Source of the DNA: Escherichia coli
Lineage (GTDB): Bacteria; Pseudomonadota; Gammaproteobacteria; Enterobacterales; Enterobacteriaceae
Direction: 5' to 3' (one strand)
Assembly (NCBI RefSeq): GCF_011045215.1
Contig: NZ_CP049201.1
DNA: 64,000 bases
The position numbers were made by a program, and so were the translations under genes. Below the pieces are notes generated by a model. The model worked only from the letters and a program-made list of their open reading frames with translations. It was not told the DNA's origin and made no database searches. Below, one piece after another: positions 16,815-19,334 of this stretch (the stretch's first letter is position 1; every line of letters starts with the position of its first letter).

Positions 16815-17705
16815 ATGATCAAGAAGACAACGGAAATTGATGCCATCTTGTTAAATCTCAATAAGGCTATCGATGCCCACTACCAGTGGCTGGTGAGTAT
16901 GTTTCACAGCGTGGTCGCGAGAGATGCCAGTAAGCCAGAAATAACGGATAACCATTCTTATGGACTGTGCCAGTTTGGTCGGTGGATTGATCATCTGGGG
17001 CCACTCGATAACGATGAATTACCTTACGTTCGGCTAATGGATTCTGCCCATCAACATATGCATAACTGTGGTCGGGAATTAATGCTGGCTATTGTTGAAA
17101 ATCACTGGCAGGACGCGCATTTCGACGCCTTTCAGGAGGGGTTGCTTTCTTTTACTGCGGCATTAACCGATTACAAAATTTATTTGCTGACGATCCGTAG
17201 CAATATGGATGTTTTGACGGGATTGCCGGGTCGTCGGGTTCTTGATGAATCCTTTGATCATCAGTTACGCAACGCTGAGCCTCTGAATCTTTATTTAATG
17301 TTGTTGGATATTGACCGATTTAAATTGGTTAATGATACCTACGGGCATTTAATCGGCGATGTAGTATTACGCACCCTGGCAACTTACTTAGCCAGTTGGA
17401 CGCGTGATTACGAAACGGTTTATCGCTACGGGGGCGAAGAATTTATCATTATTGTCAAAGCGGCTAATGATGAAGAAGCATGTCGTGCAGGTGTCAGAAT
17501 TTGCCAGTTAGTCGATAACCATGCCATCACACATTCTGAAGGGCATATCAACATTACCGTGACAGCAGGTGTCAGTCGCGCATTTCCTGAAGAGCCTCTG
17601 GATGTGGTCATTGGAAGAGCAGACCGGGCAATGTATGAGGGTAAGCAAACCGGAAGAAATCGCTGCATGTTTATTGACGAACAAAATGTGATTAACCGAG
17701 TTTAA
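16815..17705 (+). CDS. dgcZ: Zinc-sensing diguanylate cyclase DgcZ (YdeH)
   Basis: N-terminal zinc-binding (CZB) domain and C-terminal GGDEF domain (RYGGEEF); ribosome-binding site AAGGAG; start at MIKKTTEID. Confidence 0.85.
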   Translation: MIKKTTEIDAILLNLNKAIDAHYQWLVSMFHSVVARDASKPEITDNHSYGLCQFGRWIDHLGPLDNDELPYVRLMDSAHQHMHNCGRELMLAIVENHWQDAHFDAFQEGLLSFTAALTDYKIYLLTIRSNMDVLTGLPGRRVLDESFDHQLRNAEPLNLYLMLLDIDRFKLVNDTYGHLIGDVVLRTLATYLASWTRDYETVYRYGGEEFIIIVKAANDEEACRAGVRICQLVDNHAITHSEGHINITVTAGVSRAFPEEPLDVVIGRADRAMYEGKQTGRNRCMFIDEQNVINRV

Positions 17706-17820
17706 GCTCCGTTTAACATTCATTGAGAAAACTGATGCTACTGTGTCAACGATCCGTTATCAGTGCAGGAAAATGCCTGTTAGCGTAAAAGCAAAACACA
17801 AATCTATCCATGCAAGCATT

Positions 17821-17849
17821 CACCGCCGGTTTACTGGCGGTTTTTTTTT
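17821..17849 (+). terminator. Rho-independent terminator after dgcZ
   Basis: Stem CCGCC...GGCGG followed by a T9 run. Confidence 0.5.
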
Positions 17850-17924
17850 CGCCGTCATAAAAATCAGGCCCCTTGTACACAACTGTAACAAGGGGCCGGT
17901 TAGGTGAGGGATTATCTCCGTTCA

Positions 17925-18020
17925 TTAGTCATCCCATTTGTGGCTGAAATACGCGGCCAGAAAACCAGAAAATAAAATTATTCCCAGTACGGCCATAAAA
18001 ACATTCATATTACCCAGCAT
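17925..18020 (-). CDS. mgtS: Small membrane protein MgtS (YneM)
   Basis: Minus-strand translation gives MLGNMNVFMAVLGIILFSGFLAAYFSHKWDD (31 aa), matching MgtS. Too short to appear in the ORF track. Confidence 0.7.
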   Translation of the reverse strand: MLGNMNVFMAVLGIILFSGFLAAYFSHKWDD

Positions 18021-18146
18021 TATTTGCCTCCGTTTATGGTGTGGTGTGTTTCCTCGCTTACCTTAATTTTTATCTCAATGAGAAAGATATTAGCAGAGGT
18101 AACCTAAACGAAGGCTGAATTAAATTTTTATTGTGTTCGACTTAAA

Positions 18147-19334
18147 TCAACAAAGCGCGGGCTGCCCCCACGGTTTTGCACGAATCCCTTTTAACATCAG
18201 CACCCACGCAGCAATGATCACCAACGCTAAGATGATAAACAGCGAGGAAGGCGGCAGGCTGGTTAGCACTACGCCACTCACTAATGGGTTAATCGCGGCA
18301 CCAAGCCAGCCTAAAGACTGGGCGGAAAAATAGCTGGCTTTCATTCCTGGCGGCGCAATATGGTCAATCAACATATACTCGCCCGGCGCATAAATGATTT
18401 CACCGACAGTAAATACCGCAGCTGACATACCCCACAATAGCAGGCTGTTGCCGGAAAAAATAAAACCGACCAGACCGATGACGAAACAGAGGGTGCCAGC
18501 TGTCATCAGCGCGCGGATGTTAGCCGGGTTAAGGCGGCGGCCCACGGAATATTGCAACGTAACCACCATGGCAGCATTCACCGGAAGAACAACCGCGACC
18601 ACCTTTTCGGCAAAATCCCCATCAGCAATCACCATCACATATTGTGAAATGCATGATGCAAATGCGCCGCTAACAAAAGAAGCCAGAAAGCCAGAGCAGG
18701 TAAACCACAACAGTGCTTTATCTTGTAATAAAACTTTCGGCGACCAGACACTGCCTGTTTCCGTGGCGATGATTTTCTCGCTGCGCTTTACCCAAATTTG
18801 AATGAAAAGCATGGGAAACGCGGAACAGATAGCTGCCAGCCAAAAGGGCAGATTGATGCTCTGCATCACCAACAGCGTGCCGAGCGGCGGACCGATGGTC
18901 CAGCCAATGTTGAGCATGGTGTAGTTGATTGAGAAGATTTTCGTTTTGCTGGTGGACGAAAGATTGTCGGCAAACCAGGCTTTCAACACGGTAGCAAAAA
19001 CGGAATAGGCGCAGTTAATGAGGGCAAAAAAGAGCACCACCAGCGTTACGTTATTCACTAAAGGAATGGCAATAAAACCGCTGGCGAAGGCGGTAATTGC
19101 CAGTAACATATAGCGTTTCTTGTCGAACTTATCCGCCAGGATACCAAAACCGAGGCTAAAAACGACGCCAATAGTGAGCGCAATTGTCATCGCATAACCG
19201 ATTAGATCGACACTCAGGCTGTACTGGCGACTCAAGTAAATGGTCATAAATGGCAGCGTAGCGCCGCGTCCGATGGTTAATAACAATGACGAGGCAAGAA
19301 GGGCGCTGGTAGAGCGTCGTAGGGATAAGTTCAT
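18147..19334 (-). CDS. ydeE: MFS efflux transporter YdeE
   Basis: 395 aa; polytopic MFS sequence. Confidence 0.85.
   Translation of the reverse strand: MNLSLRRSTSALLASSLLLTIGRGATLPFMTIYLSRQYSLSVDLIGYAMTIALTIGVVFSLGFGILADKFDKKRYMLLAITAFASGFIAIPLVNNVTLVVLFFALINCAYSVFATVLKAWFADNLSSTSKTKIFSINYTMLNIGWTIGPPLGTLLVMQSINLPFWLAAICSAFPMLFIQIWVKRSEKIIATETGSVWSPKVLLQDKALLWFTCSGFLASFVSGAFASCISQYVMVIADGDFAEKVVAVVLPVNAAMVVTLQYSVGRRLNPANIRALMTAGTLCFVIGLVGFIFSGNSLLLWGMSAAVFTVGEIIYAPGEYMLIDHIAPPGMKASYFSAQSLGWLGAAINPLVSGVVLTSLPPSSLFIILALVIIAAWVLMLKGIRAKPWGQPALC

Follow-up and report, generated by a model that had tools for sequence, protein, structure and literature searches.

The dgcZ–ydeE intergenic space (17706-18146) of the 64,000-nt stretch of Escherichia coli DNA analysed here, referred to below as the window, is the known PhoQ/PhoP-controlled low-Mg2+ module of the E. 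coli K-12 type. It holds mgtS, the small RNA gene mgrR and the mgtT frame, all of which have already been annotated and experimentally characterised in K-12. In the full picture, which we consider highly probable, mgrR and mgtS are convergent, PhoP-controlled genes that end at terminators of their own, with read-through by a minority of mgtS transcripts accounting for MgtT. The gene identities, the hairpins and their conservation, and the allele frequencies were obtained in this analysis; PhoQP dependence, the RNA 3′ ends, the translation of MgtT and the RNase III site are taken from the literature on K-12. The coordinates of all features are collected in Table 1.

Of 5426 complete E. coli genomes, 5416 have the locus, and over a 551-nt stretch it shows 100% identity to strain PapM-32-1. 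The flanking genes dgcZ and ydeE and the content, order and orientation of the genes between them are the same as in K-12, where they are registered as mgtS (yneM, b4599), mgtT (b4775) and mgrR (b4698). The position of mgtS between dgcZ and ydeE given in the initial annotation was correct. The alignment with K-12 is 99% identical over ∼550 nt, and the MgtS and hairpin sequences are identical. The differences are a T9 instead of a T8 tract in the MgrR terminator, with the 34-aa mgtT becoming a 59-aa ORF, one C/T exchange at position 9 of MgrR, and a change from ATG to ATA in the start codon of the leader ORF CDS58. The present strain would be expected to behave as K-12 does.

Table 1. Features of the mgtS–mgrR locus and its flanks (window coordinates)
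Feature	Position	Strand	Basis
dgcZ (diguanylate cyclase) CDS	16815..17705	+	PGAP annotation of identical DNA; ORF
mgrR PhoP-box-like hexamers AGTTTA (17699-17704), CGTTTA (17710-17715), CATTGA (17721-17726)	17699..17726	+	pattern match 17699-17715; conservation
predicted mgrR extended -10, TGcTACTGT (-10 at 17739-17744)	17736..17744	+	prediction read from sequence
mgtT frame, ATG 17925..17923	17746..17925	-	ORF; K-12 annotation; PGAP; PF23498; allele counts
mgrR, Hfq-dependent sRNA	17751..17849	+	K-12 b4698 via alignment; Rfam RF01407; fold
MgrR intrinsic terminator: stem 17822-17841, T9 17841-17849	17822..17849	+	repeat/terminator scan; K-12 alignment; Term-seq
mgtS intrinsic terminator: hairpin 17897..17867, U-tract 17866..17857	17857..17897	-	fold; repeat; covariation; K-12 Term-seq
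mgtS CDS, 31 aa, one hydrophobic helix	17925..18020	-	translation; identical-DNA annotation; NF033842; PF22865
position of K-12 leader ORF 'CDS58' (17 aa)	18020..18073	-	PIRT-seq supplement; K-12 alignment; allele counts
Shine-Dalgarno GGAGG, 6 nt before mgtS ATG	18027..18031	-	read from sequence
predicted mgtS promoter: PhoP-box-like AATTCA-GCCTT-CGTTTA 18121..18105, 12-nt spacer, -10 TAATAT 18092..18087	18087..18121	-	positional conservation
ydeE (MFS exporter); same strand as mgtS, upstream of it	18147..19334	-	ORF; annotation
terminator-like hairpin CGTGGGGGCAGCCCGCG, then CTTTGTTGAT, within last ydeE codons	18156-18172	-	

mgtS and its leader

MgtS reportedly raises intracellular Mg2+, protects MgtA and acts on PitA. 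The mgtS frame of the window translates to MLGNMNVFMAVLGIILFSGFLAAYFSHKWDD, in which a single hydrophobic transmembrane stretch (VFMAVLGIILFSGFLAAYF) is visible, and membrane localisation has been shown for the K-12 protein. Identical DNA in PapM-32-1 is annotated as mgtS (WP_000901367.1). The translation scores 80.6 bits against the NCBIfam equivalog NF033842 (cut-off 35) and 88.2 bits against Pfam PF22865 (cut-off 27), with residues 1-31 matching profile positions 1-31 (31/31, full length). The alignment of the 31-aa product with MgtS, on which the initial annotation had made its identification depend, was thus obtained. Some database entries for 'MgtS' (P0001, P0004, P0006 and P0011) are 61-75 aa long and consist of MgtS sequence over residues 1-25 to 1-31 followed by unrelated tails, and one Salmonella-type long entry runs on into YdeI/BOF-like sequence; these overlong entries look like assembly or frameshift artefacts or deletions.

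In K-12 and BW25113, the mgtS 5′ UTR contains the leader ORF CDS58 (MKIKVSEETHHTINGGK), the TAA of which overlaps the mgtS ATG. CDS58 is absent from the window because the codon at its start (18073..18071) is ATA. Among E. coli records, the 61-nt ATG allele is present in 4550 and the ATA allele of the window in 374. The 5′ UTR stretch TTAAGGTAAG(C/A)GAGG is kept across genera whether the CDS58 ORF is present or not. In the window, CDS58 and mgtT are both broken while mgtS is intact, which is in keeping with strong constraint at the protein level on mgtS alone among the three. E. coli NCTC10444, and also strain KV7, carry an IS1 insertion 10-19 nt ahead of the mgtS ATG (window equivalent 18030-18039) with a target duplication of ∼10 bp. 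The insertion cuts mgtS, together with its Shine-Dalgarno sequence, off from the PhoP-dependent promoter.

The convergent partner of mgtS

An Rfam scan gave a single strong match, on the plus strand at 17717-17931, to the family RF01407 (STnc560) with 277.5 bits (gathering score 55, E = 9e-65, model positions 1-214); the model is broader than the 98-nt sRNA and takes in flanking sequence. In Salmonella, MgrR goes by the name STnc560. In the K-12 record, mgrR is annotated between dgcZ and mgtS, convergent with mgtS. The gene is 99 nt long in the window and 98 nt in K-12, and here it is preceded by a predicted promoter with PhoP hexamers and a -10 element and closed by a Rho-independent terminator with a U-tail. 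The K-12 RNA is Hfq-dependent and PhoP-activated, and represses eptB and other targets. At window position 17758, which is position 9 of MgrR, the window has C and K-12 has T (GATCCG vs GATTCG); C is also found in Citrobacter and Salmonella.

The stem of the MgrR terminator comprises 8 pairs, 6 of them G-C, and in K-12 Term-seq data the MgrR 3′ end falls in the T-tract, at 1622824 (-), with ∼2.4 million reads. The initial annotation had listed a plus-strand terminator at 17821-17849. The hairpin is real, with a stem that starts at 17822, but it belongs to MgrR, which had been missed. Most of the stretch from dgcZ to the hairpins is taken up by mgrR, so it is this gene, and not dgcZ, that converges on mgtS. 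The simpler account, in which the plus-strand hairpin is just the dgcZ terminator and the region amounts to mgtS alone, insulated from dgcZ, has in its favour that no other plus-strand terminator follows the dgcZ stop, and for this reason dgcZ transcripts may also end at 17822-17849. However, a 99-nt sRNA gene with a PhoP-dependent promoter of its own fills 17751-17849, and Salmonella and Citrobacter have no dgcZ at this place, yet mgrR and its terminator still adjoin mgtS. We regard this account as extremely improbable, and as a complete description it is refuted by the Rfam match and the K-12 annotation.

Conservation of the arrangement in Enterobacteriaceae

Fourteen mgtS-carrying sequences were compared, namely the window and 13 fetched loci, which together represent E. 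coli, E. albertii, E. whittamii, four Citrobacter-type sequences, Salmonella and four lineages found via MgtS variants. Relatives of MgtS were gathered by a phmmer search of a representative library and by exact look-ups. A contig scan with a 20-nt MgrR core, a pattern too strict for Salmonella, gave 11 loci, seven of them usable (Escherichia/Citrobacter); a C. portucalensis locus ends before mgtS, and the hits in Spirochaetes and Calescibacterium were discarded as chance matches. A contig of a metagenome-assembled genome labelled Caldithrix sp. (SMXE01000224.1) carries an MgrR core identical to that of E. coli together with an identical mgtS, probably because E. coli sequence has contaminated this bin.

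In 13 of the 14 sequences, mgtS is followed by a hairpin with a U-tract and then by an inverted MgrR, while the flanking genes differ; MgrR was confirmed by Rfam in six representative loci. The G+C-rich hairpin and its U-tract lie 24-27 nt after mgtS (13/14), and the sequence beyond them is variable, with an insertion of ∼35 nt in Citrobacter. In the P0016 lineage (locus L021, ∼784-830), mgtS directly abuts the antisense of the MgrR terminator without a hairpin of its own, so a single hairpin appears to be common to mgtS and mgrR. The MgtS protein called at that locus has 41 aa owing to an upstream start.

The Salmonella locus resembles that of E. coli in that STnc560/MgrR and mgtS are convergent, with the same GGCCCCUUG...CAAGGGGCC terminator, TAATG overlap and PhoP-type promoter layout. 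It differs in that dgcZ is absent and ydeI follows mgrR, that MgtS is changed at 6 of 31 residues, and that the ORF in the mgtT frame has another length and another C-terminus. The convergent mgtS–mgrR pair is a conserved two-gene module that moves between genomic neighbourhoods in Enterobacteriaceae.

The hairpin downstream of mgtS is an intrinsic terminator

On the mgtS strand, the second hairpin reads GGCCCCUUGU-U-ACA-GUUG-UGU-ACAAGGGGCC and is followed by UGAUUUUUAU (17866..17857); on its plus-strand side it is followed by GGUUAGGUGAGG, without a U-tract. Its arms (17867-17876 and 17888-17897) are 10 nt each, 100% complementary and 11 nt apart. The initial annotation had given this inverted repeat as 17868-17897; the repeat with its perfect arms is real, but the left coordinate was one base off. 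The 10+3 bp stem has a predicted energy of -25.3 kcal/mol (z = -3.8), and none of 200 shuffled sequences folded as well. No second copy of the repeat occurs in the 64-kb window, and 100 shuffles gave 0 matches; a dispersed repeat or REP element was rejected on the ground of this uniqueness. A generic terminator scan of the window missed the hairpin because only loops of 3-8 bases were accepted, and here 11 nt separate the perfect arms, with the inner 3 pairs set off by a bulge.

The pairing has been maintained in evolution. Over 10 taxa, 96.9% of the cells of the alignment are paired, and 6 of the 13 pairs have changed on both sides; no value as high was obtained in 500 shuffles, and slid controls had at most 2 double-changed pairs. 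The compensatory changes span Escherichia, Citrobacter, Salmonella and two further lineages. Some of the pairs are G-U, which are valid on the mgtS strand only and are A-C mismatches on the other strand. In K-12, Term-seq detected a 3′ end at 1622804 (+), with the sequence ...ACAAGGGGCCTGATT, which corresponds to window position 17862, 5 nt past the mgtS stem, and the local sequence is identical in the window. The number of reads in these data is ∼1000-fold higher for the MgrR 3′ end than for the mgtS 3′ end. The hairpin at 17867-17897 thus combines a G+C-rich stem and a U-tract with evolutionary maintenance and a K-12 RNA 3′ end, and it is the intrinsic terminator of mgtS. The initial annotation, which had proposed that it may terminate mgtS on the minus strand, was right on this point.

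In principle, the Term-seq peak could mark a 3′ end left by processing and protected by the hairpin, and not a site of termination. The hairpin would then be a processing or stabilising 3′ stem-loop at which exonucleases stall, and true termination would occur further downstream. Such a role would be in line with an end that lies only 5 nt past the stem, trimming being common, and with the read-through RNA that must exist for MgtT. However, all lineages with the hairpin have a U-tract after the stem, though the sequence beyond it varies, which is the signature of intrinsic termination, and the next hairpin downstream, the antisense of the MgrR terminator, has no U-tract on the mgtS strand. We judge the processing explanation to be very unlikely.

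Because the mgtT frame crosses the same hairpin, the stem might also be kept mainly for the MgtT residues that it encodes (RPL...KGP) and not as an RNA terminator. The invariant stem arms do translate to the conserved RPL and KGP of MgtT, and MgtT has a Pfam family. Yet the changes that are compensatory in the RNA are non-synonymous in the protein (VTVVY, VAVMH, VTTAY, ATFVC), and the hairpin and U-tract persist where the ORF stops in the loop (Citrobacter) or before the hairpin (P0002 lineage). In the P0010 lineage, a different hairpin occupies the position of the mgtS terminator. The Term-seq 3′ end directly after the hairpin and the absence of a phenotype of the mgtT deletion also speak against a coding role. 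Protein-coding constraint as the main cause of the conservation of the hairpin was rejected on these grounds, and we regard it as extremely improbable.

Transcript ends and insulation

The two terminators are placed tail to tail, in the order MgrR stem, T9, CGCCGTCAT, AAAAATCA, mgtS stem, so that each polymerase meets its own terminator first. The dominant 3′ ends in K-12, 1622804 (+) and 1622824 (-), do not overlap and are roughly 12-20 nt apart. The description of the locus as tightly insulated convergent units therefore applies to the main RNA species, but insulation is not complete, as MgtT is translated and an RNase III site is present at the mgrR 3′ end. This RNase III-dependent site, reported for K-12 at 1622816 ('intergenic yneM-mgrR'), lies one base past the MgrR 3′ end and was ascribed by the authors of that study to RNase III-dependent antisense transcripts. 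Some read-through is needed to account for both MgtT translation and this site with its antisense transcripts. Paired or bidirectional terminators of convergent genes likewise end two units within a few tens of bases. Instead of one bidirectional hairpin, the E. coli locus has two separate terminators that work in one direction each and carry a U-tract on one side only.

The mgtT frame

The initial annotation had overlooked mgtT. In K-12, the gene encodes 34 aa (MNGDNPSPNRPLVTVVYKGPDFYDGEKKPPVNRR; window equivalent 17820..17925), and its ATG overlaps the mgtS stop as TAATG (window 17927..17923). The frame crosses the 17867-17897 hairpin and then covers 29 nt of antisense to the MgrR terminator. 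Since it runs through both hairpins, the mgtS terminator is located inside coding sequence, and since the main mgtS 3′ end lies within the ORF, full-length MgtT needs read-through RNA. MgtT was detected in K-12 by ribosome profiling with stalled initiation complexes, confirmed by epitope tagging and detected again by PIRT-seq. The gene is reportedly co-transcribed with mgtS in a PhoQP-dependent operon, with a product that is not a membrane protein and with no phenotype on deletion or overexpression.

Across the two hairpins and the spacer that separates them, the window and K-12 differ only in the MgrR T-tract, which has nine T here and eight in K-12. Owing to the additional T/A at 17841-17849, the mgtT frame is shifted after ...GEKK and continues as the 59-aa ORF, and the full-length 34-aa MgtT ending in ...KKPPVNRR is not encoded in the window. 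PGAP flags mgtT as a 'frameshifted' pseudogene in the identical strain, and Pfam PF23498 matches MgtT residues 1-28 only. The T9 allele (identical 79 nt) is present in 264 of 5416 E. coli records (∼5%) and the T8 allele (78 nt) in 4865. T9 also occurs in one assembly labelled K-12 MG1655 and in one labelled Nissle 1917, and near-identical relatives of the window (matched span 550 nt) carry T8. The T9 tract may reflect real slippage or a homopolymer sequencing or assembly error.

The overlapping start (TAATG/TGATG) and the N-terminal MN-x-D-x-P are kept, with synonymous variation, in 12 of the 14 mgtS-carrying sequences. The length of the ORF varies: it has 8 aa in the P0002 lineage, with a stop 1 nt before the hairpin, 14 aa in Citrobacter, with a stop in the hairpin loop, and 30-41 aa in the remaining sequences. 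The conserved RPL, KGP and KKPPV of MgtT are translations of the stems of the two terminators, and the residues encoded by the loop vary freely, so from the sequence comparison protein-level constraint on most of MgtT looks weak.

PhoP-type sites and promoters

The PhoP-box-like site upstream of mgtS agrees with the consensus at 8 of 12 positions and is for this reason missed by a consensus scan with 2 mismatches. Over the whole window, that scan gave 23 hits with 19 expected, which is no excess over chance, so the mgtS box rests on positional conservation and on K-12 reporter data and not on motif count. The layout of box, 12-nt spacer and -10 element is common to Escherichia, Citrobacter (AGTTCAGCCTTTGTTTA, 10/12), Salmonella and the P0005 lineage. 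In K-12, PhoQP-dependent transcription of mgtS(-mgtT), with induction at low Mg2+, was established with reporters and RNA-seq. The site at 18121..18105 is a candidate PhoP box of mgtS, with transcription predicted to start near 18080; the search for a PhoP box in 18021-18146, suggested in the initial annotation, thus led to a degenerate PhoP-type site with a position that is kept across genera.

PhoP is known to activate mgrR. The hexamers upstream of mgrR are 11 bp apart and overlap the dgcZ stop codon, so that the mgrR PhoP box extends into the last dgcZ codons. Conservation of CGTTTA-N5-CATTG covers Escherichia, Citrobacter and, by reading of the sequence, Salmonella. Between the last hexamer and the predicted -10 element are 12 nt, and 6 nt separate that element from the annotated +1 (17751); the exact limits of the mgrR box and the start sites are likewise predictions. 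The MgrR promoter itself is said to have been defined in earlier work. A sigma-70 scan of the window found neither the mgtS nor the mgrR promoter, as would be expected of activator-dependent promoters without a -35 element.

Elsewhere in the window, a perfect PhoP-box consensus (TGTTTAGTCACGGTTTA) is present at 50240-50256 (+) and a one-mismatch copy (GGTTTATTGATAGTTTA) at 51244-51260 (-), ∼1 kb apart, in a region annotated in other strains as encoding a fimA-like fimbrial subunit, an HTH-domain protein and a fimbrial chaperone. The terminator-like hairpin at the end of ydeE, ∼35 nt upstream of the mgtS PhoP box, has a T-rich tail that reaches to ∼10 nt short of the ydeE stop, and may protect mgtS against transcription reading through from ydeE.

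Proposed working of the module

At low Mg2+, phospho-PhoP would bind direct-repeat boxes that replace the -35 element at both promoters. Transcription of mgrR (+) would then yield the Hfq-dependent sRNA, and that of mgtS (-) the 31-aa inner-membrane protein that would raise intracellular Mg2+. Each transcript would end at its own Rho-independent terminator, and with the U-tracts facing inward each polymerase would halt before reaching the other hairpin. A minority of mgtS transcripts would read through, and only those could encode full-length MgtT, which in the present strain would be frameshifted by the 9-T run.

A more speculative proposal, to which we assign a low probability, is that the conserved feature of mgtT is the act of translation and not the protein. 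On re-initiation at the UAAUG/UGAUG junction, a ribosome would move into the 5′ arm of the terminator or halt immediately before it; its presence there would block the mgtS hairpin, and transcription would read through into the antisense of mgrR. Several observations fit such a role: the end of the mgtT ORF varies from 8 to 41 aa, yet the ribosome would always reach or abut the hairpin; the overlapping start and MNxDxP are conserved (12/14); the main K-12 3′ end is within the ORF; and an RNase III site lies at the MgrR 3′ end.

As a discovery the locus is of small value, and the significance of the analysis is chiefly corrective: mgtS faces an sRNA gene and not dgcZ, and the mgtS terminator sits within a translated small ORF. 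If translation into the terminator is indeed what is conserved, MgtS translation would be coupled to antisense/RNase III control of the ∼1000-fold more abundant MgrR or, alternatively, to the stability of the mgtS mRNA 3′ end.
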